The position numbers were made by a program, and so were the translations under genes. Positions 41,045 through 56,888 of a DNA stretch of 64,000 nucleotides are shown piece by piece. Every line of letters starts with the position of its first letter. Within the stretch, counting starts at the first letter, position 1. The notes beneath the pieces were generated by a model. The model was not told the origin of the DNA and did no database searches. It saw only the letters and a program-made list of their open reading frames with translations. Origin of the DNA: Patescibacteria group bacterium (lineage in GTDB: Bacteria; Patescibacteriota; Saccharimonadia; CAILAD01; BJGX01); assembly GCA_026397045.1 (NCBI GenBank), contig JAPLVO010000012.1, positions 10,654 to 74,653 on the forward strand, in the 5' to 3' direction.

Positions 41045-41509
41045 ATGTCCAAACAAAATGATTTTTATTTAACTAAAGAAGGCCTTGCAGAGCTTCAGGC
41101 CGAGCTTGATAACCTTAAAACTACCAAGCGCAAAGAAGTTGCTAATGCCCTTAAAGAGGCTAAAGAATTCGGCGACCTCAGCGAAAATACTGATTGGGAT
41201 GATGCCAAATCTCGGCAGCTCTTTATCGAAGGCCGTATTTCGGAGCTTGATAATATTCTAAAGCACGCTAAAGTAATAGAAAAATCTAACACTAGCTCCG
41301 TGGTTGTAGGCTCTACCGTAGAGGTAGAACTCGAAAATGATCACCATACATTCAGGATTGTCGGCTCCACAGAGGCCAATCCAGATAAGGGTAAGATTTC
41401 CGACGAGTCTCCTATCGGTAAGGCCCTTATGGGCAAGAAAATAGGCGAACACGCAGAGGTCCAAATTCCTGCTGGCTCAATCACCTACCGAATACTAGAT
41501 GTCAAATAG
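41045..41509 (+). CDS. greA: Transcription elongation factor GreA
   Basis: N-terminal coiled-coil LTKEGLAELQAELDNL...GDLSENTDWDDAK and a C-terminal FKBP-like domain. Confidence 0.9.
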   Translation: MSKQNDFYLTKEGLAELQAELDNLKTTKRKEVANALKEAKEFGDLSENTDWDDAKSRQLFIEGRISELDNILKHAKVIEKSNTSSVVVGSTVEVELENDHHTFRIVGSTEANPDKGKISDESPIGKALMGKKIGEHAEVQIPAGSITYRILDVK

Positions 41510-41559
41510 GTTCCTGGCGCCTTAGCTTGTTGGCCCATAGTCGGGTATAATTAAAAACT

Positions 41560-43119
41560 ATGAACGATAATAACCAGAGTAACTATTGGCTAGATATATT
41601 AATATCAAGGATAATCACGGCCCACCCAACAGGCGAGCTGATTGTATCTAGTGGTATATCTCCATCGGGTCCGTATCATGTTGGTCATGGCCGAGAGATA
41701 CTCACAGCCGACTCAATTTATCGCGGGTTGCGCGAGGCTGGAAGGCAAGTCCGGCACTTGCACTTCGTGGACGCCCACGATACCCTGCGCAAACGCTACC
41801 CATATCTCCCAGAATCATACGAACAAGAAGCCGGCAAGCCACTATACAAAGTCCCGGCACCAGATGGTAAATCTGAAAATTATGCTAAGCAGTACTTTTC
41901 AGATTATCAAAAGAGCGCTAAAAAGCTGGGGATTGAAATGGAGATAATCTGGACCAACGAACTCTATGAATCTGGTGTATTTTCAGATGCCATTGGGCTT
42001 TGCCTTAGAAAGCGCGACGAAATCGCCAAGATTCTTTTTGATATTAGTGGTCGGGAAGTATCAGAAGATTGGCAGCCTATTCAGATTCTCGATCAATCAA
42101 CAGGCAAGCTCAATACCGCTAAGTTTATAGGTTACGACCATGACACCCAAAAAGCTCATTACTTAGGGGAAGATCAAAATGAATATTTCGCAGATGCCAG
42201 CAAGGGCCAGATTAAGCTGGATTGGCGGCTAGATTGGACAGCTCGCTGGAAACTCTATGGCGTTATGATCGAGGGTTTTGGAAGGGAGCATGCCACTAAA
42301 GGGGGAAGCTATGATACTGGGGTGGTTTTAGCCAAAGAAATATTTGCTATCGATGCGCCAATACCCGTGCCCTATGACACAATCAACCTCAAAGGGGAGT
42401 CTAAAAAGATGAGCTCCTCTCTTGGTAATTTAGTAAGCCTGATAGATTCTCTAGAAATTATTCCGCCAGAGGTGCTCAGATACTTCACTTTCAAGAGCCG
42501 CCCCGAAAAGCAGCTTGGCTTCGACCCCGGGCTGGGCCTCTATACATTAATGGATGAATACGCCAAAACTGAATCAGCCACCTTAGCAGGCGAAGAGCCA
42601 GCTTTTAAGCGAGCCTGGCAGATAGCCAGCTTATCTGGCGATCAGCATGTTGTTAGCACTGTGCCCTTCTCTCATATCGTGACCCTCTACCAGACTGCCA
42701 GAGGAGAAGCTGTTGTTATTCTGGAGATGCTCGAGCGCACTGGCCATAAGGCTGCCGTACAGACCCAATCTGAATCCATACTGCGCGAATTAAAGTATGT
42801 CAAGAATTGGATAGATCGTTATGCCCCGGAAAATATTAAATTTGAAATACAAAAGAAGCTGCCAGAACTTGAAATTAGTAAGGCTCAACATCAGTTCTTG
42901 GCTGGGTTACTCGATAAAATTAAGCCTTCATCCATGCAGGCCGATGAAATCCACAAGGCAGTTTATGACAGCGCTATGGCATCTGATTTGAAGCCAGCTG
43001 AAGCATTTAAGCTTATTTATAGGCTATTTTTAAATAAAGACCAGGGGCCGAAAGTTGGCTTTTTCCTTTCTAGCCTAGACAAAGACTTCGTATTAAATAG
43101 AATTGCACTAAAAGGGTAG
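41560..43119 (+). CDS. lysS: Lysyl-tRNA synthetase, class I (archaeal/spirochaete type)
   Basis: SGISPSGPYHVGHGREI (class-I HIGH region) and KMSSSLGN (KMSKS). About 520 aa, as in class I LysRS. Confidence 0.8.
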   Translation: MNDNNQSNYWLDILISRIITAHPTGELIVSSGISPSGPYHVGHGREILTADSIYRGLREAGRQVRHLHFVDAHDTLRKRYPYLPESYEQEAGKPLYKVPAPDGKSENYAKQYFSDYQKSAKKLGIEMEIIWTNELYESGVFSDAIGLCLRKRDEIAKILFDISGREVSEDWQPIQILDQSTGKLNTAKFIGYDHDTQKAHYLGEDQNEYFADASKGQIKLDWRLDWTARWKLYGVMIEGFGREHATKGGSYDTGVVLAKEIFAIDAPIPVPYDTINLKGESKKMSSSLGNLVSLIDSLEIIPPEVLRYFTFKSRPEKQLGFDPGLGLYTLMDEYAKTESATLAGEEPAFKRAWQIASLSGDQHVVSTVPFSHIVTLYQTARGEAVVILEMLERTGHKAAVQTQSESILRELKYVKNWIDRYAPENIKFEIQKKLPELEISKAQHQFLAGLLDKIKPSSMQADEIHKAVYDSAMASDLKPAEAFKLIYRLFLNKDQGPKVGFFLSSLDKDFVLNRIALKG

Positions 43120-43131
43120 TATAATTAAGCT

Positions 43132-44418
43132 ATGTTAGACATACGATTTATCAGAAAAGATCCAGAGGCCGTTAAGCAAAATGCAATAAATAAGGGCTAC
43201 GAAATCGATATTGCGTCCATCCTTGATTTGGATGAGAACCGTCGAGATCTTATTCTTAAAACCGAAACTCTGCGCGAGCGGCGCAACGACTTGTCTAAAT
43301 CTAAAGACCAAACTTCAGATACAATCTCTGAAGCCAAGGCTATTCGAACAGAATTGGCTGGGTTAGAGAGCGAATTGGCCGTCATCGAGGAAAAATTGAA
43401 CTTAAAGCTCAGAGTAGTACCAAATATGGCGCTCAAAGAAGTCCCTATCGGAAAATCAGAAAACGATAATGTCGTCCTAAAGACAGTCGGGACTAAGCCT
43501 GAATTTGATTTCAAGCCTAAAAGCGATGAAGAGCTTGGCGAATTACACGGCTTTATTGACAAGCAGAGGGCTGCAAAAGTGGCTGGGGCCAGATTCGCCT
43601 ATCTAAAAGGTAAAATTGTTCGGTTGCAGTTTTCCCTCATCGAAATGGTGATGGATATACTAACCGACGAAATAGTCATTAAAGAAATAATCAAAACGCA
43701 GGGCCTTAATATAAAGCCCACTCCATTTGTACCAGTGCTGCCACCATACTTAATAAAAACCGAGCCATATATGGCATCCGGAAGGCTCGATAGCGAAGAA
43801 GTCACCTATAAGCTAGAAAACGACGAACTTTGGCTAAATGCAAGTGCTGAGCATAGCTTGTGTACTATGTATATGAATGAAAAAATCTCTCATAAGGATC
43901 TGCCCATAAGAATGCTTGGCTATTCCACTAGCTTCCGGCGCGAAGCCGGCAGCTATGGTAAAGACAGTGAAGGGCTATTTAGGATGCATCAATTCGATAA
44001 GCTCGAAATGGAAATATTTTCAACAGCTGACACCGGCCAAGAAGAACATAAGCTTCTGGTAGCGCTTCAAGAGTATTTATTGCAGCAATTGGAATTGCCT
44101 TATCAGGTAATACAAAAATGTTCAGCCGATATTGGTAGGCCAAATGCCCAAGGGGTTGATATCGATACCTGGGTCCCTACCCAAAACAAATATCGCGAAA
44201 CTCACACTGCTGACTACATGACAGACTACCAGGCAAGGAGCTTGAATACCAAAGTGAAGCTCGAAAGCGGCGAGTCCGAGTTCGTTCACACCAACGATGC
44301 CACGGCCTTTGCAATGGGCCGGATATTAAAAGCTATCCTGGAGAACTTCCAACAGGCTGATGGTAGAATCAAATTACCAAAAGCCTTGGCGAAGTATTTT
44401 GGAGCCAATGAACTTTAA
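43132..44418 (+). CDS. serS: Seryl-tRNA synthetase
   Basis: N-terminal coiled-coil arm and class II motifs. TATAAT 6 nt upstream of the ATG, so likely leaderless. Confidence 0.9.
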   Translation: MLDIRFIRKDPEAVKQNAINKGYEIDIASILDLDENRRDLILKTETLRERRNDLSKSKDQTSDTISEAKAIRTELAGLESELAVIEEKLNLKLRVVPNMALKEVPIGKSENDNVVLKTVGTKPEFDFKPKSDEELGELHGFIDKQRAAKVAGARFAYLKGKIVRLQFSLIEMVMDILTDEIVIKEIIKTQGLNIKPTPFVPVLPPYLIKTEPYMASGRLDSEEVTYKLENDELWLNASAEHSLCTMYMNEKISHKDLPIRMLGYSTSFRREAGSYGKDSEGLFRMHQFDKLEMEIFSTADTGQEEHKLLVALQEYLLQQLELPYQVIQKCSADIGRPNAQGVDIDTWVPTQNKYRETHTADYMTDYQARSLNTKVKLESGESEFVHTNDATAFAMGRILKAILENFQQADGRIKLPKALAKYFGANEL

Positions 44419-44436
44419 TTAATAAAGGAGGTCCTC

Positions 44437-44793
44437 ATGATAAAGATCCAGCTAACAGGGCGTAAATTTGAGATTGAACCAGAAATCAAGAAGTATGTCG
44501 AGCGAAAGCTCGGAGGATTAGATAAATATTTGCCTCGCGGCCATATCAACCAGGGCATGAGCGTAGAAATATTAAAGGACCCATCAGGCAAGGAAGATAA
44601 TCGCTATAAGGTCATCGCCGTTCTAAAAGTGCAGGGGCCAGATCTAGTGGCCGAGACTGCCACCATAAACCCACATTCGGCCATTGATATCGTGGAACAA
44701 AAGTTAAAAATCCAAATACGGAAGTATAAGGAAAAGCAAAAACCTCGTCGCATCGGCATTAAAGAGCTGTTTGATAAAATCAGATCGCACTAA
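44437..44793 (+). CDS. hpf: Ribosome hibernation promoting factor (short HPF/RaiA)
   Basis: MIKIQLTGRKFEIEPEIKKYVERKL... Confidence 0.85.
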   Translation: MIKIQLTGRKFEIEPEIKKYVERKLGGLDKYLPRGHINQGMSVEILKDPSGKEDNRYKVIAVLKVQGPDLVAETATINPHSAIDIVEQKLKIQIRKYKEKQKPRRIGIKELFDKIRSH

Positions 44794-44820
44794 CCAAGCG
44801 ACTCCTGTATAATATAAATT

Positions 44821-47415
44821 ATGTCATTTATAACCAAAATATTTGGTGACCCAAACGAGCGGGAAATCAAAAAAGATCGATTAATAGTCGATAAGATTAA
44901 TGCCTTAGAAGCTAATACCAAAGCCCTGACTGATAAGCAGCTAACAGCCAAGACGGCTGAGTTTAAAAAGAGGCTTGGCAAACAGGAAACTCTGGATGAT
45001 ATCCTACCAGAAGCCTTTGCTGTAGTTCGTGAGGCTTCAAGGCGCCGGCTAGGCCAAAGACACTTCGATGTACAGCTCATCGGCGGGATTGTTTTGCATG
45101 AAGGTAAAATCGCCGAAATGCGTACTGGAGAGGGCAAGACCTTGGTTGCAACGCTAGCTTTGTATCTAAATGCCCTGGAAGGCAAGGGCGCTCATTTGGT
45201 TACCGTTAACGACTATTTGGCCAGGATCGGTGTAGGCTGGATGGGTGAAATATATCATTCTTTGGGGCTTTCTTCGGCCGTTGTTTTGCCACAGGGAGCA
45301 TTTTTGTTCGATCCAGACTTCAGCGACGAGTCCCACCACGATCCACGCCTATGGCACCTTAGGCCTATCACCAAGCAAGAGGCTTATCGAGCCGATATCA
45401 CTTATGGCACAAATAACGAGTATGGTTTTGATTACTTGCGCGATAATATGGTTTCGGATTTAGATCAATGTTCACAGCGAAAGCTAAACTATGCGATAGT
45501 CGACGAAGTAGATTCTATCTTGATAGATGAAGCCCGTACGCCACTTATTATTTCTCAGCCCGCAGGCAAAAGCACTGAGCGATATCAGTCTTTCGCTAAG
45601 CTCGCTACCAAACTCAAGCGGGATACAGATTACACCGTAGATGAAAAACAGAAGGCCGTGAGCCTAACCCCCAAAGGCATCACCCAGATAGAAGTCGATC
45701 TAGGTGTGGAAAATGTCTACGATGCCGAGCACATCGAATATGTACACCACATCGAGCAGAGTCTTAAGGCCGAGGCTTTATTCGTGAAAGACAAAGATTA
45801 TGTGGTTAGTGAGGGCGAGATAGTTATTGTCGATGAGTTCACCGGTAGGCTATTGGCAGGCCGTCGCTACTCGGAGGGTCTACACCAGGCTATTGAAGCC
45901 AAAGAAGGCGTGATTGTCCAGGCAGAATCCCAGACCTTAGCCACGATCACCTTCCAGAATTACTTCAGGCTTTACGGTAAGCTATCTGGGATGACAGGTA
46001 CTGCCCAGACCGAGGCCGAAGAGTTCGCAAAAATATACAAGCTCGAAGTTACCCGAATTCCTACCCATAGGACCATGATAAGAACCGACCTCAAAGACCG
46101 TATTTATAAATCCGAGGCTACCAAGTTTGCTGCTGTAGTTGAGGAAGTCAGGGTTAGGATCGCTAAAGGTCAGCCCGTACTGCTGGGTACTTCTAGTATT
46201 GAAAAGAACGAAATAATGAGCCAGCTACTATCTAAGGCGGGTATCGCCCATGAGCTACTAAATGCCAAAAACAATGAGAGAGAAGCCGAAATTGTGGCTT
46301 TGGCGGGCCAGCAAAAGTCTGTCACCTTGGCCACCAACATCGCAGGCCGCGGGACCGATATAGTGCTAGGCGAAGGAGTCAAGGAGCTAGGTGGGCTGCA
46401 TGTAATAGGCACAGAGCGCCATGAATCTAGGCGCATTGATAATCAGCTCCGGGGTAGGGCTGGGCGGCAGGGCGATCCAGGATCGAGCCAGTTTTTTGTT
46501 AGTGTTGAGGATGATCTTATGCGAATATTTGGTGGAGAACGAATTGGCTCACTGATGTCAGGCTTGAATTTGCCAGACGACATGCCAATAGAGAATAGTG
46601 TTATATCTAAGTCGCTCGAAACAGCTCAAAAACGAGTTGAGGGCCAGAACTTCGATGCCCGTAAGCATTTGGTGGAATACGATGATGTAATGAACTCCCA
46701 GCGCGAGATCATCTATGCCAAGCGCCGCAAGTACCTGGAGGGCAAGGACCTCAGAGCCGAAGCAGAGTCCATGTACTCGCAGGAGTTTGGCGATATCGTG
46801 AGCGCTAACACCAATCCCAAGACAGGCTCTGTGGATCTGGTTCAAGTTCAGGCATCGGCAGCTATGATTAGCCCCTTGCCAGACGATTGGTCCAGCAAAA
46901 TTGATACCAAAGTCCCGGATCTGATCACCAAAGACCTTGTGGCGAGAGTCGGAAATATCCTCGATCAGCGCGGAAAGGATGTCGGTGAAGATGTCCTGGC
47001 AGTTATCCTTAGGCTAGTTTTTTTAAGAACCATCGACAGTGCTTGGCTCGATCACCTCGAGACAATGGATCATCTGCGCGAGGGAATTGGTTTGCGCGGC
47101 TACGGCCAGCGCGACCCTCTTGTCGAATACAAGGCAGAGGCATTTGGGCTATTTACCAGGCTCCAGGCCTCGATTATTTCTGAAGTAGTTACCACTTTGC
47201 CGAAGGTAGATATACGCAAGCAGCCGGAGCATGCCGAGGCCGTTGATACCGAAATAACCTCAGGAGCCGAGATGGCTAATGCCAACATGGAGAGTTCCAT
47301 TAAAAAACAATCTCAAGCGGGTAATGTCAGGACTCAAATAAAGCGCCCCATCAGGCAGCCCGAATTAAAGCCTATGCGTAAAAAATCTAAAAACAAGAAA
47401 AAAAGGCGTAAATAG
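44821..47415 (+). CDS. secA: Preprotein translocase ATPase SecA; the C-terminus is basic and lacks the usual zinc-finger
   Basis: Full motor domains (DEAD-like NBDs, preprotein cross-linking domain). 864 aa ending in a KKSKNKKKRRK tail. Confidence 0.95.
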   Translation: MSFITKIFGDPNEREIKKDRLIVDKINALEANTKALTDKQLTAKTAEFKKRLGKQETLDDILPEAFAVVREASRRRLGQRHFDVQLIGGIVLHEGKIAEMRTGEGKTLVATLALYLNALEGKGAHLVTVNDYLARIGVGWMGEIYHSLGLSSAVVLPQGAFLFDPDFSDESHHDPRLWHLRPITKQEAYRADITYGTNNEYGFDYLRDNMVSDLDQCSQRKLNYAIVDEVDSILIDEARTPLIISQPAGKSTERYQSFAKLATKLKRDTDYTVDEKQKAVSLTPKGITQIEVDLGVENVYDAEHIEYVHHIEQSLKAEALFVKDKDYVVSEGEIVIVDEFTGRLLAGRRYSEGLHQAIEAKEGVIVQAESQTLATITFQNYFRLYGKLSGMTGTAQTEAEEFAKIYKLEVTRIPTHRTMIRTDLKDRIYKSEATKFAAVVEEVRVRIAKGQPVLLGTSSIEKNEIMSQLLSKAGIAHELLNAKNNEREAEIVALAGQQKSVTLATNIAGRGTDIVLGEGVKELGGLHVIGTERHESRRIDNQLRGRAGRQGDPGSSQFFVSVEDDLMRIFGGERIGSLMSGLNLPDDMPIENSVISKSLETAQKRVEGQNFDARKHLVEYDDVMNSQREIIYAKRRKYLEGKDLRAEAESMYSQEFGDIVSANTNPKTGSVDLVQVQASAAMISPLPDDWSSKIDTKVPDLITKDLVARVGNILDQRGKDVGEDVLAVILRLVFLRTIDSAWLDHLETMDHLREGIGLRGYGQRDPLVEYKAEAFGLFTRLQASIISEVVTTLPKVDIRKQPEHAEAVDTEITSGAEMANANMESSIKKQSQAGNVRTQIKRPIRQPELKPMRKKSKNKKKRRK

Positions 47416-47428
47416 CTCCTGATAGCTA

Positions 47429-47457
47429 TTGATTATTTATAAGGTATTTAGTATTAT
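47429..47457 (+). promoter_or_regulatory. Sigma70-like promoter of the accessory locus
   Basis: TTGATT, a 17-nt spacer, then TATTAT. Followed by SD AAGGAGGG before the 47483 ORF. Confidence 0.5.
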
Positions 47458-47482
47458 AAACATAACTACTTAAGGAGGGTTA

Positions 47483-47809
47483 ATGAAAGATAAAACTAAG
47501 GATAGGGTAAGTTCGGTTCAGCTCGAGATCTTCGCAGAAAACTTACTCGAAGAAAAGCCCCTCTATAATATCGACGAAGAAACTATTGTCCAGATGAGAG
47601 AGGACCTGGTAGATAGACTTGTCCAGGTTACCAATAAAACCATAGTCGAAAACATCCCTGCCGAAAAACTATTTGATTTTGAGAAGCTTATCGATTCCTC
47701 ACCCAAACCTTCCGAAATCCAGGCTTTTATCGAAGATAATGTTCCAGAGTTGGCACCAAAACTCACTGAAGCCTACTTTAATTTCCGTAAAATATACTTA
47801 GGTTTGTAA
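47483..47809 (+). CDS. Small acidic protein (108 aa) immediately upstream of the giant ORF. Chaperone-like by size and charge only.
   Basis: Strong SD and an acidic composition. The stop lies 12 nt before the giant ORF start. Confidence 0.5.
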   Translation: MKDKTKDRVSSVQLEIFAENLLEEKPLYNIDEETIVQMREDLVDRLVQVTNKTIVENIPAEKLFDFEKLIDSSPKPSEIQAFIEDNVPELAPKLTEAYFNFRKIYLGL

Positions 47810-47821
47810 GGTATAAGTATT

Positions 47822-50800
47822 TTGCCTAATAAACTCTCATCCCCCAGCCCCTCATATTCCAGCCCCTTATCTCCAAGTCCTTATGAGGGTCTCACCGGAA
47901 AATCTAAAGTTGGCAGCACGCCTTCACTTGACGGTATTACCCCTACAGCTCTGGGCAATCCCGACGGCAGCGATCTTGCAGGATCAACATCAGAAAAGCG
48001 ACCAGGGAGGCCACGGAAAGAACCAGCGAGGAGTTCTGATATAAAACGAATGCCCGAATGGAAGAATACCAACAAGTCCTCTACAGCCAGCCGTTCTTCT
48101 GCAGACGAACCCACGCCTCAGCGCAGTAAGCCAGAAGCTCCTGCACCTCAACCCAAAAAGCAAGAAGCTCTTGCACCCGAACCTGCCCCTGCACCCAGCC
48201 AGCCAGAAGCTCCCGCCCAGGCCGAACAGTCAGCTTCACCGCAGCTCCAAGCGCTGACGGAGCCAAGCCCAAGGGCTGATGAGACGATAGATGATTATTA
48301 CCAGCGGCTATTCGGCTTGAGTTTTGAAGAGGCCCAGGACCGTAAAGGGGATACAAATCTTTTGAGCCCGCAGCAGAAGGGTGCCTTGACAAGAGAACGC
48401 AACAGGCTCGATAAACATCTCCGCAGCCTAGACTCACAAGACAGCGATCTACCAGCTGCGGAAACCAAAAGGCTGCAAGACCTTAATTTCGTGCTGGAAA
48501 ATGCGCAGCCATTTGAACCTGGGAACAACGATGATCCGAATCTCAGATGGCGACTCCCCAGCCTCGCATCCGATAAAATGACGGTTCCTGATGCAACCTC
48601 CGAAACTAACGCCCCGACGCCAACTATCCTTGATCCGCTTACAGTAGCTGACGCTCTAGAAAGCCCGTATACAAGCCTCATAGAATCACTTAGCTTAGAG
48701 CTCGACAGCAGTGAAACCGTCGTCATTGCGGGCCAATCATACAATAAAGGCGATACCGTGTTCTATACTTCAGGTGCAGGCAATGAGGGTGAATATTTCG
48801 TTTTGACAAATACGATTGCAGACCCCCCAGGGTTGGTTTTGCAAAATGTGGAAACGGAACTTGTTTTTGCAATTTCTGGCGATACGGACCCTGCTATGCT
48901 CCGCCCCGGCTCGATTGCTAGTCCTGCTGTAGCGCCCACAGGCGAACCTGCGCTAAATTTCAGGCCATACGACGAAACCGATCCGGTCCTGGGTGGCGGC
49001 ATGGATTCGGAAACCTATAGATTTGATGATATCAAAGATCCAGCCAAGCCTCCTACTGAGGGCCCCATCGATAATCCTCCACAGGAACCAGTTGAAGAGC
49101 CTGAGCCTCCTTCGCCGTCCCCAGACCAAGGGCCTATCATATTGTACTCATTGGACACCACTGAAACAGACAAGGCCTTGTCCTTATTGAAAGCAGATGA
49201 GCAGGTAGATAAAGAGCTTCAGGAAATTCGAAAGGAACTGTTTGAGCCAAAAAACCCATCAGACAGCAGATTCGCAAGGCTGGTTCAGACAGCAGCAAAA
49301 GGGGTTAGATCGACATTTCGTCATCCAATTAAGGCTTTTAAATATATAGCCAGAAGCACAGTAACCAGAGAAGCCACCCGGCAGAGATACGCGAAAGGGC
49401 ACCTAGAAGCCTCCGAAGGAGTCGATTTCCACGACGCTTTAGCTGGGGATGTGGCTAAGCGATTAGACCTTGGGGAGGACTTCTTGCAAAATGGCGAAAG
49501 ACTGCTCGGCGAAGACAACTCTGAAGTCAGAGCAGTTAAGGACGCTTTGAATGTAGTTTTTCAGCAGGGTATTGAAGGAACTACAGACAGGGATTCCACA
49601 CTCAATGACGCCAGGCGTATATTGGCAGAAGCCCCCTGGCTAAAAGGAGGTTCCGATCAAGAAGTCCACATGCTTAAAAATCTTGAAGAGATGTACGATA
49701 GGATAACCATCGCCGTCGAGCACGAATCTGGGCTTGCCGCTATCGATGCCGCCTATCAGCTTAAAGGTGGCGAAGTCACACTTGGCGTAAACTCCGAAGC
49801 CCACAAGACAGCCACAGATAGAATTATGGAAAAACTCACCAATAGTCGGTTCAAAGCCTTGATAGTAAATGAGGCAACAATAGCTATAGCAGTAGGAGTA
49901 GTTGTTAATACGGCAGGTTACCTGGCTCGTAGCAAAGGATCTAGGTATGTCGCGGGGGCGCTGGTAGGTGGTCCTGTCGGTATCGCCTTAGTTGCAGGCT
50001 CAGCTGGTTTGTTTGCCGCGGCGAGAGAACGCACCACCTTGCGCCAAGAGCGGGCCTTAAGAATGTATCAGATAGCCTCGGGCCAATCCGAAGTAGCCAA
50101 TGACAGCGATACGGCTCCTCGATCTACCGAAGTCGATGCCTCACTCTACGAAATGGTATCTGCCAGAGATGTACTCGATGACTTCTCCAGATTAACACCG
50201 GATGATCCGGCGACCTTATCATCATCCGAGGCCAGAGAAATTCTAGCAAGTTTGGTTGCCCTCAGAACCAATCAGAGTATCGGCGACGAATCTTCGATAG
50301 ATCTAATAAAGTATTCCTCCGAGGACATGATTGAGTCCGAAAAGTCGTTATTGATGGTGGCTAGAGCCGAAGCTGAAATATTACTCAGAAATTACTATTC
50401 CAACCATCCAGATGAATTGCCAAATATTGCAGGCAGAAATTTTGATGAAAAAATCGCTGCACTTACGGAACTATCCAAGGCGGACTTAAGCTCTAATGAG
50501 ATAACCGACAGAGACAAAGTTTTCGGTAAGCTAACCAGGAAGCGGGCATTTATGAGGGGTCTTGCTACTGCTGGCTTCGCAGGTGCTGGTAGCTATATAT
50601 CGGCACAGATGAGCGAGCATTTTAGCCATCAAATTGATGGTAAAACTGTTACAGCAGGCAATCTGGCCAATGACCCCACCACCTATAGTTTTAAGGGGGA
50701 CACAATAAATATGCCTAAAGGGTATACGATACAAGGCACCTCGATTCTGGATGGAAATGGCAAACATATTGTGGACGGGCTAGTGCCGAAGGCCGATGGC

Positions 50801-53029
50801 GGGTTATCGCCAGAAAGTATCGCGCTACTAGATGCTAAGGGAATAGGGGTCGAGCAAACAGTCGTGATGCATGATTTTGTATCTACCAGAGAGGTGTCTT
50901 ACGATGAGTTTGTTAGGCTTAAACCCGAAAGGTTCCAGCAAATTTCAAGAGAAGTATGGAAAAATAACGACACAACTAGATTTGATCTTAATGAGCTTAG
51001 GGGGGATTTCAAACTTTCCGAAAATGGCGATATAGTTGTAGCCACCAACCGGCTCACCGACACGGGCTCGTTTGGCCAGGGCGAAAGCGTGGCGGCACAT
51101 TCCGAGCAGCTAGCGGGGCGGCTTAAAATATTAATGACACCAGATAAGGGCAACCAGAGCTCGGCAGTTGTCCTAGATGTCTCCCCCGATGGTACAACCG
51201 TAATACCTAAGGGTTCGGATCTTTATAACTTATTTAAGGTAGATCCAACTGCCACTGGTATTGGTCAAGTTAAGCTGGATTCGGGGTTTTTAGAAATAGC
51301 AACCCCGGGTGGACCAACCGCCGATGGATCCCAAAGCTTTCAAATACTTGCTACTCAGGTCGGTAATAACCCTCCTGGCACTGTATTAATAACAGAAAAT
51401 ATCAGTACGCCAGTGTACCAAACTACTCTGCTTGTTCCAAAAGAGACCTATATTCCAGGCAGCGACTTCCGAGCGCCTTTTATACCTATCGCAGCGCCAT
51501 TGCCTCGTAGGCCATTAGACGAAGTTATCCCTCGTGGTGTCCATGAACCATATTTGGAGTCTCCATATTTTGGATATCAGTCTGGCGAGTTTAGCCCTGA
51601 AGACGAAGATCGGATACATAGGCGTTTCTCAGAACGGTTACGCAATAATCCCGATGCTGTACTTGATCCTCGAGAGGAGATTGAGGGCTATTTAGCTGGT
51701 ATGGATCCGGAGCGCAGAGAAGCGCTGGAAGATTTAGCCGAGCAGACCGAGGCTATGAGTAATACTTGCGAAATAGCTGTAGCAATCCCGGTTAATGGTG
51801 CTCAGGAAGGTAAGAATATTTACAAAACATTACAATGGTATTCTAAACAACTAGATACAGAAGGTAACCCTCTAGATCCTGGGAAATTTGAGATTGTGTT
51901 GTTTGTAAATAAGCCTACCGACTTAGAGTGGGATGAAACATTAAGCGAAATTGAAAGATTTAAGTCCCAATATCCGAATGTTCCGATCAGGGTGATTCAA
52001 CGAGAGTATCCACCCGAGCAAGCAAGAATAGGTAGAATTAGGAGAGACATGACCGACTTAACACTCTTGCGCCAGAGTAGACGCACGGTCGATCAGGATT
52101 TAGTCGTGGTTAGTAACGATGCTGATTGCAAAGGTTTGGGCGCTTCCTACATAGCAACAATACTAGAACAAACCGAGGTACAGGCCGCCGATGGTCTGTC
52201 GGGGCGCTTAGAATGGGACCCCACTACAAATATAGAGTCCCCGTTGTATCATATGGGCGTTAAGTTCATGCAGATGCTCGATCTTATCGATAGACATCCG
52301 TCGCCAGGCTCGGGGAGGCAGGCTAGGTATCGTTACCCTGGCGCTAACTTCGCATTTAAAGCTTCAATGTATGCTGGCGTTGGTGGATACGATGAGGGTA
52401 GCGTTAAGGCCGAAGATGTCGTGCTTGGGAGGACAATTAAGATGGCCCGCCGTGGCTCTGATAAGTTTACTGGAGTTGGATTTTATGGAGGGGACAATGT
52501 TGTTTATACTGATTCCAGACGAGGTATAACTGTTTTCAACCAGGGATATCCGCCAGCAGCTCAATGGTCGAAGCTCAGCTTTGGACCTAAGGATGCCGCT
52601 CGCGAAGGAGCGGAGATAGAGGATGGTATAAATTACGATCTACTTTTAAGCGAAGAGCCCAGGCTGATTAATAAAACTCGCCAAAAAAGAGCACGAAGGC
52701 TATTTGAAGCTGAGCTATCGAGGTTTATAGAACAAACACTTGAGGAGTATCGCATTATATCCGACAACACCACCTACCATGAAGGCATGCGTATGCCAAC
52801 TGATGTAGAAATAGCTGGTAGGGCGGTGGAGGCCATGCGAATAGATGCGACTATAGAGGTTTCGAACGGTGAAGTAAGAGTTTCAGTTGTTGATGCTTCT
52901 AAGCTATATAGCTACCTCCGCGGTTATCGTAAATCTGGATTGCGCAATTATATGGCCCGAACTGATCTCGGAAGAGTTTTTTCTGGCGGAATCAATGAAG
53001 TCTTCCCCGATCTTGAAGCTGCGGCTTAA
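47822..53029 (+). CDS. Giant (1735 aa) multi-domain protein: disordered Pro/Ser/Ala-rich N-terminus, two central TM helices, C-terminal GT-A-like glycosyltransferase domain
   Basis: Uninterrupted 5.2-kb ORF with a TTG start. The N-terminal ~330 aa are low-complexity (SPSPSYSSPLSPSP, PEAPAPQP repeats, GRPRK). A hydrophobic pair lies at about residues 690-735 (IAIAVGVVVNTAGYL ... ALVGGPVGIALVAGSAGLFAAA). The C-terminal region has a GT-A pattern: IAVAIPVNG ... FEIVLFVNK ... IRVIQRE ... DLVVVSNDADC. Confidence 0.65.
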   Translation: MPNKLSSPSPSYSSPLSPSPYEGLTGKSKVGSTPSLDGITPTALGNPDGSDLAGSTSEKRPGRPRKEPARSSDIKRMPEWKNTNKSSTASRSSADEPTPQRSKPEAPAPQPKKQEALAPEPAPAPSQPEAPAQAEQSASPQLQALTEPSPRADETIDDYYQRLFGLSFEEAQDRKGDTNLLSPQQKGALTRERNRLDKHLRSLDSQDSDLPAAETKRLQDLNFVLENAQPFEPGNNDDPNLRWRLPSLASDKMTVPDATSETNAPTPTILDPLTVADALESPYTSLIESLSLELDSSETVVIAGQSYNKGDTVFYTSGAGNEGEYFVLTNTIADPPGLVLQNVETELVFAISGDTDPAMLRPGSIASPAVAPTGEPALNFRPYDETDPVLGGGMDSETYRFDDIKDPAKPPTEGPIDNPPQEPVEEPEPPSPSPDQGPIILYSLDTTETDKALSLLKADEQVDKELQEIRKELFEPKNPSDSRFARLVQTAAKGVRSTFRHPIKAFKYIARSTVTREATRQRYAKGHLEASEGVDFHDALAGDVAKRLDLGEDFLQNGERLLGEDNSEVRAVKDALNVVFQQGIEGTTDRDSTLNDARRILAEAPWLKGGSDQEVHMLKNLEEMYDRITIAVEHESGLAAIDAAYQLKGGEVTLGVNSEAHKTATDRIMEKLTNSRFKALIVNEATIAIAVGVVVNTAGYLARSKGSRYVAGALVGGPVGIALVAGSAGLFAAARERTTLRQERALRMYQIASGQSEVANDSDTAPRSTEVDASLYEMVSARDVLDDFSRLTPDDPATLSSSEAREILASLVALRTNQSIGDESSIDLIKYSSEDMIESEKSLLMVARAEAEILLRNYYSNHPDELPNIAGRNFDEKIAALTELSKADLSSNEITDRDKVFGKLTRKRAFMRGLATAGFAGAGSYISAQMSEHFSHQIDGKTVTAGNLANDPTTYSFKGDTINMPKGYTIQGTSILDGNGKHIVDGLVPKADGGLSPESIALLDAKGIGVEQTVVMHDFVSTREVSYDEFVRLKPERFQQISREVWKNNDTTRFDLNELRGDFKLSENGDIVVATNRLTDTGSFGQGESVAAHSEQLAGRLKILMTPDKGNQSSAVVLDVSPDGTTVIPKGSDLYNLFKVDPTATGIGQVKLDSGFLEIATPGGPTADGSQSFQILATQVGNNPPGTVLITENISTPVYQTTLLVPKETYIPGSDFRAPFIPIAAPLPRRPLDEVIPRGVHEPYLESPYFGYQSGEFSPEDEDRIHRRFSERLRNNPDAVLDPREEIEGYLAGMDPERREALEDLAEQTEAMSNTCEIAVAIPVNGAQEGKNIYKTLQWYSKQLDTEGNPLDPGKFEIVLFVNKPTDLEWDETLSEIERFKSQYPNVPIRVIQREYPPEQARIGRIRRDMTDLTLLRQSRRTVDQDLVVVSNDADCKGLGASYIATILEQTEVQAADGLSGRLEWDPTTNIESPLYHMGVKFMQMLDLIDRHPSPGSGRQARYRYPGANFAFKASMYAGVGGYDEGSVKAEDVVLGRTIKMARRGSDKFTGVGFYGGDNVVYTDSRRGITVFNQGYPPAAQWSKLSFGPKDAAREGAEIEDGINYDLLLSEEPRLINKTRQKRARRLFEAELSRFIEQTLEEYRIISDNTTYHEGMRMPTDVEIAGRAVEAMRIDATIEVSNGEVRVSVVDASKLYSYLRGYRKSGLRNYMARTDLGRVFSGGINEVFPDLEAAA

Positions 53030-53055
53030 ACACAAGCTTTATCCTAACAAAACTA

Positions 53056-53084
53056 TTGACAAAATGCTTATTTTATAGTATCTT
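53056..53084 (+). promoter_or_regulatory. Sigma70-like promoter at the left edge of the GC-rich island
   Basis: TTGACA, a 17-nt spacer, then TATCTT. Followed by SD AAAGGAGGG. Confidence 0.45.
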
Positions 53085-53141
53085 TGCAAATGATTCCCGT
53101 AAATCGCGGGAGTAGTAGTTTTTTAGAAAGGAGGGCCAGTG

Positions 53142-53729
53142 ATGGCCCGTACGTCAAAAGAAGTCGATGCTCTCCTAGGAGAGCTAGAAGACGCGGCAGC
53201 GCGTCATCATAGTGCACTGCTTGCGCAGTGCGCCGTGGACGACGAGGTTGAAAGGAGGTTCGACCGAGTTTTGAGTCTCTACGAGAGGCTCACCGCTAGG
53301 ATCGGGGGGCTGGCCGACCAGCACGATGCCACCGTACAGCGTGTTAACCGGCTTGAAAAAAGGGTTGACACGCTCAGCAACCCTCTTTTTACGCTGCTGA
53401 TTGGGGTGGCGGCTGTGGCTGGCTGGCTTTTCCTCAGCCTGTGGATCAAGTCCACAGTTGGCAACAACGCCCGGGTGTGGATGGACGGCCAAGAAATTCT
53501 TTGGCGGGACCACCCGCAGTTTGATGCATTAACGGGCAATATCATCGGTGGAGGCGTAGCCTTCATAGTTGGTATGACCGTAGTTTGCTTGATCATCGAT
53601 TTGATGAGTAACAGCAATCCGCAACCAAAACGCCAAAACCCGCCTGCCGTGGCGGTGGAGGAAGAACAGGTTCAACAGCCTGTCCGGGCCTTGCCCAGTC
53701 CGGCCAACGCCGGCCAGCTTAACCCGTGA
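53142..53729 (+). CDS. GC-rich island gene 1: membrane protein with a cytoplasmic coiled-coil N-terminus and two TM helices
   Basis: High-GC codon usage contrasting with its neighbours. An ATG 6 nt after the SD (the ORF track starts at the GTG at 53139). Followed by a GGTGCGTGC/GCACGCACC hairpin at 53737-53771. Confidence 0.55.
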   Translation: MARTSKEVDALLGELEDAAARHHSALLAQCAVDDEVERRFDRVLSLYERLTARIGGLADQHDATVQRVNRLEKRVDTLSNPLFTLLIGVAAVAGWLFLSLWIKSTVGNNARVWMDGQEILWRDHPQFDALTGNIIGGGVAFIVGMTVVCLIIDLMSNSNPQPKRQNPPAVAVEEEQVQQPVRALPSPANAGQLNP

Positions 53730-53888
53730 ACGGCACTGGTGCGTGCAGGGGGATTTATCCCTCCGCACGCACCACAACTTTTTGAACCAACTGCATTGTT
53801 ATCAGGTCTATAGGACAACCTGGTGGCAAGTAGGTGTTTCTAAAACACATTTTCCAATGTCCCCTTGCTCTCGAAAGGAGCTAGTACC

Positions 53889-54893
53889 ATGACATCAAAG
53901 AAGAGAACCCTGTTTGGGGTTATGGGTGGTTTTATCTTCGTTTTGTTTTTCCTGTTGTTCCTTTTAGGGGGCAATGGGCAGGCAACGCCTACAACAACCA
54001 CCACCACAACGGTATTGCCGGGGGAGTGCACCAGCCAGGTGCATTACTTCCGGCACGACTTGCCAGCCGAAGTGAACCATTTCGGCCCGGCTGCGCCGGA
54101 CGGTGATGTCCAGCAGGTCCTTGCGGACCTACACAACCGGATCTGCGTCGATCCGGCGCTGACGATGGCACTCCGTCAGTACTCTGATCGCCAGTATACC
54201 TCTCCGGAGGAACGACTGGCGATCACTGAAGGGCTCGTAGCCAACCGAGAGGCTTGGGCATTAAATGTCCTTGCTATCGAGGGCCGCCAGGCCACGGCCG
54301 TGAAGGTGGAGATTGTGAAGATGAGCGAGCCTTACCGCACGCTCTACATGGTCAACACCCCTATCCCCGGTATCTACCAAGATGCCGTGGACCGGCCGGA
54401 GTATCGTGTGCTTAGATTCACCTACGCCGATGGTTATGTCGATAACTACAAGCTCGATTGCGGGTATCAACCCGTCGAGCCTGTTTTTGCCGGCATTCCA
54501 GGCCCGCCGCCGACAACGGCGCCAGGAAAAGGTGGAAAGGTCACGCCAAGTGGCCCAAACCCACCACCGCCTGGCCCGCCACCGACAACGGCACCGCCGA
54601 CCACGGCACCACCGACCACTTGCCCGCCCACGGTGTGCAAAGGGCCGGATACCGCCCCCGCAGCCTGCATCGACAATGTCGGTGTAAGCTGTACTGGGAT
54701 TCCGGGGTCAGGTGGCTCCCCCGGCAACGGTGGAGCAATCAACCACGGAAATGATGGCTATTCGCCATCAGATCCGCCGCCGCCCACCTGGGTGGCACCG
54801 GCGCCGGTGCCAACTTCGGTGGTGGCTCTGCCATCGACAACGGCACCGCCACCACCGACCCAGAACCTCAGTCCGGGAGATATCCCGGGCTGA
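53889..54893 (+). CDS. GC-rich island gene 2: secreted or anchored Pro/Thr-rich, Cys-containing protein
   Basis: SD AAGGAG 10 nt before the ATG at 53889 (the ORF track starts at 53865). N-terminal hydrophobic segment, a poly-Thr run, PPTTAPPTTAPPTTCPPTVC repeats, and GC-rich third codon positions. Confidence 0.55.
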   Translation: MTSKKRTLFGVMGGFIFVLFFLLFLLGGNGQATPTTTTTTTVLPGECTSQVHYFRHDLPAEVNHFGPAAPDGDVQQVLADLHNRICVDPALTMALRQYSDRQYTSPEERLAITEGLVANREAWALNVLAIEGRQATAVKVEIVKMSEPYRTLYMVNTPIPGIYQDAVDRPEYRVLRFTYADGYVDNYKLDCGYQPVEPVFAGIPGPPPTTAPGKGGKVTPSGPNPPPPGPPPTTAPPTTAPPTTCPPTVCKGPDTAPAACIDNVGVSCTGIPGSGGSPGNGGAINHGNDGYSPSDPPPPTWVAPAPVPTSVVALPSTTAPPPPTQNLSPGDIPG

Positions 54894-54896
54894 GAA

Positions 54897-54928
54897 CCCG
54901 GTGGCTGAGGGGTAAAACCCTCAGCCAC
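54897..54928 (+). terminator. Perfect 12-bp inverted repeat hairpin closing the GC-rich island (I-shaped, no U-tract)
   Basis: GGTGGCTGAGGG-GTAAAA-CCCTCAGCCACC, followed by two further small hairpins. Confidence 0.5.
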
Positions 54929-55016
54929 CAACCCAAATTTCAAACTTGAACTCAGCTTGAGGGCTATCTGAGTTCAGGGTTGAATCCCTGCTAAAAAGCT
55001 AATGGTATAAATAGTA

Positions 55017-55045
55017 TTGACATATCTAACAAAAAGTGGTATTAT
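55017..55045 (+). promoter_or_regulatory. Sigma70-like promoter upstream of the LPXTG protein gene
   Basis: TTGACA, a 17-nt spacer, then TATTAT. Confidence 0.45.
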
Positions 55046-55163
55046 TCATTACCGTACATAGCCTTTGATCATTGAAAGCCAAATATCGCTAGAACTATCA
55101 TTCCTGACAGAACCGTCCCTATAAATATTATTTAATTAATCTTGTTTTAAAAGGAGTAAACTT

Positions 55164-56888
55164 ATGAAACTTAAAGCATTTGCAAAATTGGCAATACTTT
55201 CCGCAGCTATAGTGGCTGCTGTAATTGCGCCAATAACCGCAATAGCTGGATATGAGCCTGCCAACAGGCCCACTAAGACCTACGCTGGTCCTAGTACTCC
55301 AGCTTTTGACTACCCAGTATTTAATTCTTGGGTTAACACACCAAATTATGGTGATGAGCGAGCATTTTTTGACGCTGGCAATCAGACAAGCGGACCTTAT
55401 AAAGATCAGCTTGCTGTAGCTCCGGGCCAAGAAATCACCTTGCGTATGTATATTCACAACGGTGCGGCCCCAGGGCTTAATGGCACCAATTTAAATGGTC
55501 CAGGTGTTGCTAAGAACGCCCGTGTGCAAGTGTTCTTGCCTACTGCGACCTCGACTCAGCTTAGAAGCTTTGGCTATATCGTCGCCGATAATACCAACCC
55601 AGGCTGGGTAGCTGATTCAGTTGATTTCAACTCAGCTGTCCCCGTAAACATGGAATTTGTTAAGGGCTCAGCTCGATTAGCAAATGGCGCCAACCCTAAC
55701 GGTGTTGTGCTTCCAGATAGCATCGTGAATACCAACAACCAATTTAATGCCAACAGCCCTTCGGCTCCAATTGGCTATCAGACCATGAACGGTCTATTCC
55801 CAGGATGTTTCGAATTTGATGCCTTCGTAACCTTGAAGGTTAAGATCAACGGCCCTAGTCTTGCAGTTCAGAAAAAGGTAACCACTCCTGGCTCAACAAA
55901 CTGGCAAGAAAACCTTGATGTTAATTTCAACGATTCGAGTTCTACCCCTACCACTAGTTGGTTGGTGGAGTACAAGAATACCGGAACAACCATGATCACT
56001 AATGGTGTGGTACGAGACACCTTGCCTGCTAATTTGAAATTAGTTCCAGGCTCAGTGATGAACTTCGATGGTAACCACCCGCAAGGTATTGCAGTCGCCG
56101 ATAATGGCCTGTTTGCAGGCGGTGTGGGCGTGGGTAATATCGCTGCAGGCTCTAACGGCTTCTTCCGATTTAGAACAACCGTAGCAACCCCTTTTACCCC
56201 GAAAGAATGTGGAACCAAGAAGATAGTAAACACTGCACAGGCCGAAGCATCGGGTGTGGCAGTTATAAATGACACTGCTAGCGTAACAGCCACTAAAGAT
56301 ACTAACTGCGAAGTGCCTTCGGGCTTAATTTGTAAGAATCTTGATGTGACACTTTCGCCAGCAGATGCGATACTACCAAATAAGCCTACTTTTGTAGGCA
56401 CATCCGAGAAATCTGGTGCCGGTGCAATCAGCCCTTCAAAATATGAATATCATATTTCTAAGGTTACTGGCGAAACTGCAGTACCAATGCCTAATAGCCC
56501 AGTAGTGAGTGAATCTACCGAATTGACAAACACTGTCAAGGAAGCATATACATTCACTGAGGCTGGCGACTATAGGGTAGAGCTGAAGGTATTTGACAAG
56601 GAAGGTAAGCAGATCCAATCTGCCCCAGCTTGTAGCAAGAACTTTACATTAAGTGATGTTCCAGTACCTCCAGTACCTCCAGTACCTCCAGAACCACCAG
56701 TTCCTCCAGTTCCTCCAGTACCTTCAGTGAATCCGACTACTCCTGCTGTGGCTACTTTGCCAGAGACAGGTGTCGAGGCCGGTCTTGTAGGTGTGATAGG
56801 TTCTAGCGCGATGGCTATCGGTGCTCTAAAGTATCGAAAAAGCAGGAAGGATGTCATTGACGCCCTTTCCAAGGCTAGTAAACGCTAA
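55164..56888 (+). CDS. LPXTG-anchored cell-wall surface protein with DUF11-type repeat domains and a (PVP)n stalk
   Basis: N-terminal signal peptide; DUF11-like segments (V..DTLPANLKLVPGSV, LVEYKNTGTT); a C-terminal PVPPVPPVPPEPPVPPVPPVPS stalk; then LPETG, a hydrophobic stretch and a KYRKSRK sorting signal. Confidence 0.8.
   Translation: MKLKAFAKLAILSAAIVAAVIAPITAIAGYEPANRPTKTYAGPSTPAFDYPVFNSWVNTPNYGDERAFFDAGNQTSGPYKDQLAVAPGQEITLRMYIHNGAAPGLNGTNLNGPGVAKNARVQVFLPTATSTQLRSFGYIVADNTNPGWVADSVDFNSAVPVNMEFVKGSARLANGANPNGVVLPDSIVNTNNQFNANSPSAPIGYQTMNGLFPGCFEFDAFVTLKVKINGPSLAVQKKVTTPGSTNWQENLDVNFNDSSSTPTTSWLVEYKNTGTTMITNGVVRDTLPANLKLVPGSVMNFDGNHPQGIAVADNGLFAGGVGVGNIAAGSNGFFRFRTTVATPFTPKECGTKKIVNTAQAEASGVAVINDTASVTATKDTNCEVPSGLICKNLDVTLSPADAILPNKPTFVGTSEKSGAGAISPSKYEYHISKVTGETAVPMPNSPVVSESTELTNTVKEAYTFTEAGDYRVELKVFDKEGKQIQSAPACSKNFTLSDVPVPPVPPVPPEPPVPPVPPVPSVNPTTPAVATLPETGVEAGLVGVIGSSAMAIGALKYRKSRKDVIDALSKASKR
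56661..56723 (+). repeat. Seven tandem copies of a 9-bp unit (CCAGTACCT and variants) encoding the (PVP)n stalk
   Basis: Direct tandem repeat visible in the sequence, inside the LPXTG protein gene. Confidence 0.8.

Follow-up and report, generated by a model that had tools for sequence, protein, structure and literature searches.

A giant Patescibacteria protein that ends in a GT2-like glycosyltransferase domain and is encoded beside a conserved DUF5663 partner

The subject of this report is a pair of adjacent genes in a 64,000-nucleotide stretch of DNA (the whole of which is termed ‘the window’) from a Patescibacteria group bacterium (contig JAPLVO010000012.1 of assembly GCA_026397045.1): a small gene for an acidic protein and, directly behind it, a gene for a giant protein of 1735 amino acids. 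The C-terminal domain of the giant protein is, judged by its predicted structure, a genuine GT-A, GT2-like fold with intact catalytic motifs, and as such a divergent member of a known superfamily. Sequence comparison places the protein in a very large and uncurated family that is found across many Patescibacteria lineages, and the two genes appear to form a DUF5663-giant unit that is conserved across the group, a pairing apparently undescribed before. We favour, with a probability of roughly 0.45, the reading that the giant protein is a membrane-anchored glycosyltransferase (GT) enzyme with a cytoplasm-facing catalytic end, which would act on a membrane-proximal acceptor for the cell envelope or surface. 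The open reading frames (ORFs) and the features that matter most to this finding are the following.

47483-47809, forward strand: the small ORF, called for an acidic product of 108 amino acids (isoelectric point, pI, 4.57)
47822-53029, forward strand: the giant ORF, which starts at TTG and is open for 1735 codons
51659-52741, forward strand: the GT-A fold, GT2-like glycosyltransferase domain (residues 1280-1640), delimited by an AlphaFold model, Foldseek and an alignment of relatives (alignment A1)
52118-52126, forward strand: the codons of the DxD motif (D1433-A1434-D1435), in which both Asp residues are invariant among 40 sequences

A first-pass annotation of the window, which relied upon the letters and a list of their ORFs, had read a GT-A pattern with a DAD motif into the C-terminal end of the giant protein. 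That motif-based call was right, because the AlphaFold model and the GT2 matches of a fold search bear it out, together with the invariance of the DxD motif. The AlphaFold2 model of residues 1280-1640, made with alignment A1 (40 domain segments of relatives), has a pLDDT of 92.8 and a pTM of 0.90. A Foldseek search against the PDB gave 70 matches at E<=1e-3; the top 50 listed are all glycosyltransferases, nearly all of them GT2, at a probability of 1.00, and no glycosylating-toxin GT is found among those 50. Most of the matched enzymes are membrane-associated or membrane-integrated: the best match is PcManGT (6yv7, E 1.3e-9), and others are hyaluronan, chitin and cellulose synthases; the soluble chondroitin polymerase K4CP is also among them.

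The motifs conserved in alignment A1 (IPVAGHQEG.NIY, VSNDAD, SSGANFAFR..Y..VGGY, GEDV.LG, TS.RR and EQW) have recognizable counterparts in the window protein: IPVNGAQEG-NIY (residues 1321-1334), SNDAD (1431-1435), PGANFAFK...Y..VGGY (1506-1523), AEDVVLG (1530-1536), TDSRR (1563-1567) and AQW (1580-1582). Invariant throughout the alignment are both Asp residues of the DxD motif (D154 and D156 in its numbering), the Asp of the ED motif and both Arg residues of TS.RR; within the catalytic-acid motif (A-E1531-D1532-VVLG) the Asp never varies and the Glu is conserved in at least 90% of the sequences. The DxD motif is followed after 97 residues by the ED motif, and the latter after 35 residues by T-x-x-R-R. 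A QxxRW or Q(Q/R)xRW motif is absent from the domain, the equivalent site reading T-D-S-R-R (residues 1563-1567; T-S-x-R-R in the family), with no Trp. There are no hydrophobic segments C-terminal to the GT domain, the only ones in the protein being those at residues 677-734 and ~908-930.

Curated profiles support GT2 membership in a transitive manner only, by way of relatives: GT2-clan Pfam models are matched by 10 of the 40 relatives (best E 2e-7), and a scan of the whole giant protein against Pfam and NCBIfam gave no match. Searches of PDB sequences (by sequence and by profile) with the GT domain, the middle region and the small protein returned nothing significant, the profile search of the GT domain reaching GT2 at E 0.53. 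The first-pass annotation had also described the architecture as non-standard, and here too it holds up, in that curated-family scans and fold searches offered no characterised counterpart.

The extent of the family was not apparent from the full-length protein, since a word search with the whole sequence found 4 matches only and it was the C-terminal domain alone that revealed a large family. With residues 1301-1735 as the query, a HMMER search of 1.84 billion cluster representatives (clustered at 50% identity) gave 1024 matches at E<=1e-3, 607 at E<=1e-10 and 168 at E<=1e-30, and the members are nearly all giant proteins of 1000-2900 amino acids. In public records they are labelled ‘hypothetical protein’ or, where a kinase is present, ‘serine/threonine protein kinase’; the literature searched holds no description of this protein family, of its architecture or of DUF5663.

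The genomic setting was followed at 53 loci, obtained by scanning species-representative genomes with one conserved peptide pattern. Thirty of these are named by their records as belonging to the Candidate Phyla Radiation (CPR), and the lineages represented are Saccharibacteria, Paceibacterota/Parcubacteria, Minisyncoccia, Uhr-, Magasanik-, Buchanan-, Daviesbacteria, Levyi-, Morani-, Peri-, Nomura- and Gribaldobacteria. The family is thus spread over the Patescibacteria, amid housekeeping genes, and not restricted to closely related epibionts, to whose genomes the first-pass annotation would have limited a search for homologs. Another 16 of the 53 bear non-CPR names, mostly from one third-party series of metagenome-assembled genomes (MAGs). 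Loci L004, L007, L008, L015, L020, L025, L030, L034, L035, L045, L047, L048, L049 and L053 are non-CPR-labelled in this way (Gammaproteobacteria, Methanosarcinales, Woesearchaeota, Babeliales); they carry the same giant GT gene, most with DUF5663 upstream, the DUF5663 gene not being seen upstream in L004, L007, L008, L020, L025, L034 and L035, and mislabelled or misbinned MAGs probably lie behind these labels.

Two candidate members of extreme length (L001, 3940 residues, and L042, at least 5813 residues) proved to be contig-long, stop-free frames with unrelated domains and were excluded as evidence. Both come from third-party MAGs named ‘uncultured Planctomycetales’ (contigs of 11821 and 17440 nt) that have zero stops in one frame (3940 and 5813 codons); the other frames mostly hold ~100-350 stops, with 26 in one reverse frame of L001, and the stop-free frame also encodes MraZ, Sigma70_r4, HTH_8 and methyltransferase domains besides the GT domain. 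In several genomes a second, shorter GT-domain gene lies directly 3' of the giant gene or the GT domain is in tandem (L025 4329-7112; L026 12316-14322; L036 11333-13894; L044 11836-13218; L006 7421-12601, whose protein has two GT domains in tandem). A Pfam scan of two of the short second genes gave no match.

The giant ORF is real and intact. The stop-free frame of 1735 codons from TTG was reproduced at 47822-53029, an identical 1735-residue product exists at NCBI (‘hypothetical protein NT111_02490 [Patescibacteria group bacterium]’), and a 13-kb contig of a related strain, independently assembled (locus L054), has the syntenic order greA, secA, small ORF, giant ORF and next gene, with both members of the pair intact. 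Since the syntenic pair is intact in that second contig, the giant gene is neither a pseudogene nor an assembly artefact, and the frameshifts that the first-pass annotation had named as a possible objection are seen neither in the window nor in L054. The idea of a non-functional or mis-called ORF (a pseudogene, an assembly chimera or a wrong start) could draw upon the TTG start and the lack of a curated-family match for the full protein, but it has to contend with the intact ortholog, with more than 1000 homolog clusters of collinear architecture, with invariant catalytic residues and a confident model, and with the same NCBI call; we regard it as next to negligible.

The acidic 108-residue ORF of the first-pass annotation is likewise present, its stop separated from the start of the giant ORF by the 12 nt reported. 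A strong Shine-Dalgarno sequence (AAGGAGG) stands ahead of the ATG of the small ORF, and a Shine-Dalgarno-like AAGG lies ~10 nt 5' of the TTG of the giant ORF. Two weaker signals flank the pair, of which the first is placed compatibly with a two-gene operon, again weakly.

47429-47457, forward strand: promoter-like TTGATT-17-TATTAT, 5' of the small ORF; weak, since the region holds no more such sites than shuffling would lead one to expect
53093-53113, forward strand: terminator-like hairpin and T-run, 64 nt past the stop of the giant ORF; weak, the count not being above shuffles

The possibility that the giant gene belongs to an island gained by horizontal transfer was set aside, its GC content at third codon positions (GC3, 0.40-0.46) being not clearly distinct from that of its neighbours (0.45-0.51).

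The small ORF encodes, by comparison with its orthologs, a divergent DUF5663 protein. Among the 53 loci at least 36 have a homolog of it (~100 residues) immediately 5' of the giant gene and in the same orientation, the gap being 2-20 nt in most cases, and the loci that lack one are mostly cut off at the 5' end. Its orthologs, related by tblastn at E values down to 1e-18, are ~100 residues long and uniformly acidic (pI 4.1-5.2), with a conserved C-terminal FR..YLG; 31 of 32 match the Pfam model DUF5663 (PF18908), at a best E of 3.5e-12. The window copy itself falls below the threshold (E 0.084, 13.9 bits against a cut-off of 23.7), and the L054 ortholog matches weakly. Weak matches to all-helical domains (MgtE_N, FliG) indicate that the small protein is probably helical. 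That distant CPR lineages keep it ahead of the giant gene, at no fewer than 36 of the 53 loci, supports the view that it is a true functional partner, for which the chaperone-cargo pairing of the first-pass annotation is one possible reading. Further DUF5663-like genes, of greater divergence, are found shortly upstream of the canonical pair, in the opposite orientation, at L041 (434-868, reverse strand), L048 (276-704, reverse strand) and L053 (2370-2708, reverse strand).

Ahead of the GT domain, the giant protein is built from the following regions.

47822-49171, forward strand: Pro/Ser/Thr-rich, variable N-terminal extension (residues 1-450), delimited by composition and family mapping
49172-49849, forward strand: conserved helical region ahead of the hairpin (residues 451-676), with family coverage that rises from about residue 500 and modelled helices of pLDDT 54-90
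49850-50023, forward strand: Gly/Ala-rich hydrophobic helical hairpin (residues 677-734), comprising transmembrane (TM) segments TM1 (677-699) and TM2 (709-734)
50534-50617, forward strand: third hydrophobic helix (residues 905-932), conserved family-wide and weak in the window protein
50642-51481, forward strand: conserved beta-rich domain (residues 941-1220) with the family motif W-Y-D-N-D-T-P ... N-E-L, directly after the third helix

When 153 relatives were mapped onto the window protein, a collinear conserved core emerged at residues ~500-940 (the hairpin included), ~975-1190 and ~1250-1600, and the N-terminal ~450 residues proved common to the closest relatives only. Three hydrophobic helices make up this core together with the GT domain and a beta-rich domain for which no structural relatives were found. 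The N-terminal stretch that the first-pass annotation described as Pro/Ser/Ala-rich does have a biased composition (13.6% Pro and 18.4% Ser+Thr over residues 1-450, hence Pro/Ser/Thr-rich) and reaches further than the ~330 residues then assigned to it; the GRPRK motif noted there is present, within RPGRPRKEP at residues 60-68, as a sequence motif only. It is not wholly unconserved, as its residues 90-274 are shared with the relatives P0006 and P0009 (E 1e-18 to 1e-23), and it contains an in-frame indel of ~85 codons relative to L054, in the Pro-rich region around 48637-48886.

The two adjacent mid-protein TM helices of the first-pass annotation are there and are hydrophobic; what it overlooked is the third conserved helix at ~908-930. 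The hairpin is kept in 35-39 of 41 relatives, and its short loop is basic (ARSKGSR in the window protein; on average 2.5 K+R and 0.02 D+E in the relatives). The third helix has a hydropathy of 0.79 in the window protein against a family median of 1.55 (above 1.5 in 26 of the 41 relatives); in the structure model it forms the end of a 64-residue helix (874-937), and the residues past it carry a net acidic charge, with few Lys and Arg among them. Conservation of these hydrophobic segments is what the sequences display, and membrane anchoring or translocation by them is predicted. The middle region evolves fast, with ~20-25% identity across the family, and no fold match for residues 480-1275 was found among solved structures. 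No signal peptide or other N-terminal signal sequence was found on the giant protein.

Two further features concern the C-terminal end of the protein.

52742-53026, forward strand: C-terminal tail domain (residues 1641-1735), consensus ...ITD..L..LK.YQ..G
51520-52975, forward strand: recombined cassette (residues ~1234-1718, the GT module and tail domain), delimited by the break in DNA identity to L054

The tail domain is the counterpart of a linker that, in about a quarter of the sampled relatives, stands ahead of a Ser/Thr kinase; the window protein has no kinase domain and ends after the tail. Of 153 relatives, 65 continue for at least 200 residues past the GT core and 39 of these have extensions that are mutually homologous, and 21 of 30 scanned extensions pass Pfam Pkinase (best E 2.8e-27). 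The solved structures closest to these fused kinases are Staphylococcus aureus PknB, StkP and Mycobacterium tuberculosis PknB, with PrkC also among the closest relatives. Because an ATP-dependent kinase is fused after a nucleotide-sugar-dependent GT, the catalytic end, and with it the C-terminal half as a whole, would operate in a cytoplasm, be it that of the cell itself or that of a host. An analogy to the glycan-capping kinase WbdD was also entertained and ruled out, the closest solved relatives being the protein kinases PknB, StkP and PrkC.

Comparison with L054 reveals exchange of the GT module as a unit, by recombination among closely related strains. DNA identity between the two strains is 98.9% over window positions 40823-48636 and 97.6% over 48887-51519 (the ~85-codon indel separates these blocks), falls below 70% over 51520-52975, and recovers to 85.8% over 52976-53335 and 81% over 53659-54069. 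The breakpoints lie at a conserved PLPRRPL linker (residue ~1233) and 17 residues from the C-terminus, the last 17 residues being conserved. At the protein level, the window protein (P0001) shares 96% of its residues with P0002 in the middle region (residues 550-1200) and 44% in the GT module, whereas with P0012 it shares 51% in the former and 73% in the latter, a reciprocal mosaic. The P0002 module is as far from that of its sister strain as from those of distant relatives, because it is 40-47% identical to every other sampled module, and the phylogeny of the GT modules is incongruent with that of the rest of the protein. The DUF5663 partner does not co-vary with the cassette, since the DNA from greA to 48636 is 98.9% identical in spite of the difference in GT modules.

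In the window, the pair follows mreBC, PBP2 and secA and precedes ftsEX and a pcsB-like gene, a neighbourhood of division and envelope genes. The usual Gram-positive-type run is hpf-secA-prfB-ftsE-ftsX; a run of this type is split in the window, and the pcsB-like gene comes after ftsX. Some 9.5 kb separate secA (which ends at 47415) from prfB (which starts at 56960), and the five genes in between (47483-56888) encode the DUF5663 protein, the giant GT protein and three unknown envelope or surface proteins. Two of these, orf196 (a coiled coil and two hydrophobic segments) and orf342 (an N-terminal hydrophobic segment, Pro/Thr-rich), occupy 53139-54893 and have GC contents of 0.57 and 0.60 and a GC3 of 0.63, against a GC of 0.44-0.48 in their surroundings. 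The part covered by L054, which comprises orf196 and the first part of orf342 and reaches 54069, is 81-86% identical, as compared with 98-99% upstream, and the region looks like a strain-variable island. The third protein (orf574, 574 residues, 55164-56888) begins with a signal-like segment, continues with a DUF11-type repeat (TIGR01451, E 5e-7) and a stalk of PVPP repeats, and ends in LPETG, a hydrophobic helix and a basic tail, by which motifs it is classed as a sortase-anchored surface protein.

None of secA, prfB, orf196, orf342 and orf574 is found beside family members at the other loci. Unbiased clustering of neighbours yielded no conserved operon partner beyond DUF5663; the recurrent neighbours (RecG, FtsH, methionyl-tRNA synthetase and a histidine kinase, each at no more than 6 loci) are only housekeeping genes. 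Neither conserved secretion genes nor a conserved downstream cluster or immunity-like gene were seen near the family loci.

For the favoured reading, we infer the topology, enzymatic activity, donor, acceptor, envelope role and role of the partner as follows. The giant protein would be held in the cell’s own membrane by the hydrophobic hairpin, aided by the third helix, with its C-terminal half (beta-rich domain, GT2-like domain and, in many relatives, kinase) facing the cytoplasm with its nucleotide-sugars and ATP. The GT domain would act as an active, metal-dependent GT-A enzyme that transfers sugar from a nucleotide-sugar to a membrane-proximal acceptor, which may be a lipid-linked glycan or the precursor of an envelope or surface protein, and the DUF5663 protein would serve as a stoichiometric partner (a subunit, adaptor or assembly factor). 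Sugar specificity would vary among strains, and the product would be exposed to (diversifying) selection, which would explain the exchange of catalytic cassettes between strains; such exchange of glycosyltransferase specificity is typical of surface-glycan loci (O-antigen, capsule). Several observations weigh against all this. Three hydrophobic helices and a cytoplasmic N-terminus would place the C-terminal half outside the cell, and the charge pattern is mixed, with a basic hairpin loop and a net acidic segment after helix 3. The window domain is sub-threshold against Glyco_tranf_2_3 (E 0.014 / 0.0075, 16.7 bits against a cut-off of 27), and Ala replaces a near-invariant His in its IPVNGAQEG, where relatives have IPVAGHQEG (window 51782-51799, residues 1321-1326), a replacement shared by the P0002 allele (IPVAGAQEG) at a site that is His in at least 90% of relatives. 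Glycan-pathway genes, such as those for a flippase, a polymerase or an ABC exporter or sugar-nucleotide genes, are not among the conserved neighbours at the family loci. Finally, the fused kinases resemble protein kinases and not sugar kinases, which fits a protein-modifying or signalling role equally well. Such a role would be played by a cytoplasmic signalling scaffold, whose GT would glycosylate proteins at the inner face of the membrane, with or instead of a Hanks-type kinase, and would thereby regulate envelope growth or division, a task that falls to PknB and StkP in Gram-positives. That kinases closest to PknB, StkP and PrkC are common in the family, that the pair sits among division and envelope genes in the window, and that peptide substrates are within reach of GT2-type enzymes (as with the glycocin S-glycosyltransferases) all speak for a scaffold of this kind; we nonetheless consider it unlikely, as the neighbourhood is not kept in other lineages, the window protein is without a kinase, the best fold matches act on polysaccharide or lipid-linked acceptors, and one would not expect strains to exchange the catalytic part of a regulatory enzyme.

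The first-pass annotation had itself leaned toward an effector or toxin, or else a giant surface protein. As a host-directed effector, the protein would deliver its GT (and kinase, where present) into a host bacterium, using the helices as a device for membrane insertion and translocation and the DUF5663 protein as a chaperone or export adaptor, and the enzymes would modify targets in the host at the expense of its nucleotide-sugar and ATP. Cultured Patescibacteria are described as epibionts on host bacteria; the protein combines conserved, glycine-zipper-like hydrophobic helices with the lack of a signal peptide, its C-terminal enzymatic domains depend upon cytoplasmic cofactors, its middle region evolves fast, a small acidic partner gene is translationally close, and the catalytic cassette is polymorphic between near-identical strains, in the manner of polymorphic toxins. 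Yet the swapped alleles are homologous GT domains and not unrelated toxins, the conserved partner lies upstream and does not co-vary with them, and a conserved downstream immunity-like gene is lacking. The resemblance to toxins finds no direct support in a signal peptide, a protease or receptor-binding domain, a secretion-system link or nearby conserved secretion genes, or in a match to a glycosylating toxin, of the large clostridial type or otherwise (nearly all of the 50 best fold matches listed being GT2), and the family resides amid housekeeping genes across many lineages; we deem delivery to a host rather unlikely. Still more doubtful is a Patescibacteria-wide host-directed system, in which the helices would insert in the host membrane, a swappable GT2 ‘warhead’ (often with a kinase) would reprogramme the host by means of its UDP-sugars and ATP, and DUF5663 would be a dedicated chaperone; were delivery of this kind true, strain-level exchange of the cassette would track host range. 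The surface protein would have its N-terminus inside, pass the membrane three times and expose the GT half, as an adhesin or for the remodelling of surface or host glycans. Three conserved helices without a signal peptide formally predict a C-terminus outside the cell, helix 3 gives way to a net acidic stretch with few Lys or Arg residues, the beta-rich domain follows that helix directly, and the downstream genes of the window encode surface proteins. These genes, however, are not conserved neighbours, DxD GT-A enzymes use nucleotide-sugars, which are absent outside the cell, and the ATP-dependent, PknB-type kinase that many relatives carry after the GT, at the same end, argues for a cytoplasmic location, so that we hold an exposed GT to be improbable. 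Of all these readings, the ordinary one of envelope glycosylation is the most likely.

Among known systems, the closest in fold are the GT2 enzymes of the PcManGT (6yv7) type, whose relatives include DPMS and the GtrB-type polyprenyl-phosphate glycosyltransferases. The window domain shares with them a D-A-D version of the DxD motif and a downstream ED acid; both are membrane-tethered (a tether that is predicted in the present case), and the conserved Arg residues that follow the catalytic acid in the giant family could bind a phosphate-bearing acceptor. PcManGT-type enzymes, however, are 230-400 residues long and have membrane helices C-terminal to the GT, whereas here the GT ends a 1735-residue protein whose membrane segments lie ~550 residues upstream, with a beta-rich domain in between and a sequence similarity below curated thresholds. 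The processive synthases (BcsA and the chitin and hyaluronan synthases) also rank high among the fold matches, and the D,D,D,QxxRW spacing of BcsA is close to the 97 and 35 residues of the window domain. In contrast to them, the latter is without QxxRW and its Trp, reads T-[SD]-x-R-R instead, is not inserted between channel-forming TM helices, and has no polymer-export partner genes.

The glycosylating toxins and effectors (TcdA/TcdB, LifA, Legionella Lgt, SetA) are likewise very large proteins in which a GT-A domain is joined to a hydrophobic region that may insert into membranes, and the window protein, too, comes from an organism whose life is led on another cell. The order of domains is reversed, the window GT being C-terminal and the clostridial-type GT44 domain N-terminal; the window GT is GT2-like and neither GT44- nor GT88-like; and neither an autoprocessing cysteine protease nor receptor-binding repeats were found in the window protein (by Pfam, NCBIfam and the fold search of residues 480-1275). 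With the polymorphic toxins and contact-dependent inhibition (CDI) systems, the giant gene shares a sharp recombination boundary ahead of a C-terminal module (51519, 52976) in an otherwise near-identical protein. It departs from them in that the alternative modules are homologous GTs (40-73% identical), no conserved downstream immunity gene is present, and the partner is upstream and does not co-vary with the module.

PknB, StkP and PrkC match the fused kinases of relatives (and not the window protein) and are membrane-tethered; in PknB and StkP the kinase is N-terminal, followed by a TM helix and PASTA repeats, whereas in the GT family it stands at the extreme C-terminus, after the GT. Chaperone-cargo pairs of the type III secretion system (T3SS) kind share the placement of a small acidic protein beside a large partner (here 108 residues, pI 4.57, and at least 36 of 53 loci). 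For DUF5663 (PF18908) itself, the orthologs match the model and the window copy stays under the gathering score. The architecture as a whole (DUF5663, then a variable N-terminus, a hydrophobic and helical region, a beta-rich domain and a GT2 domain, with or without a Hanks kinase) is not in curated families or in the literature searched. To our knowledge, the Patescibacteria account for a large share of bacterial diversity, with very few of their lineage-specific proteins having an assigned activity, and against that background the family offers a concrete handle: it is very large and widespread, with a confidently predicted, assayable enzyme domain and a fixed DUF5663 partner. If the enzyme builds a surface glycoconjugate, then swapping of the cassette would suggest a strain-variable surface determinant that may matter for recognition by hosts or phages; if it is delivered to hosts, it would be a first candidate for a widely shared epibiont effector; and either outcome would give DUF5663 a role and define a new domain family.

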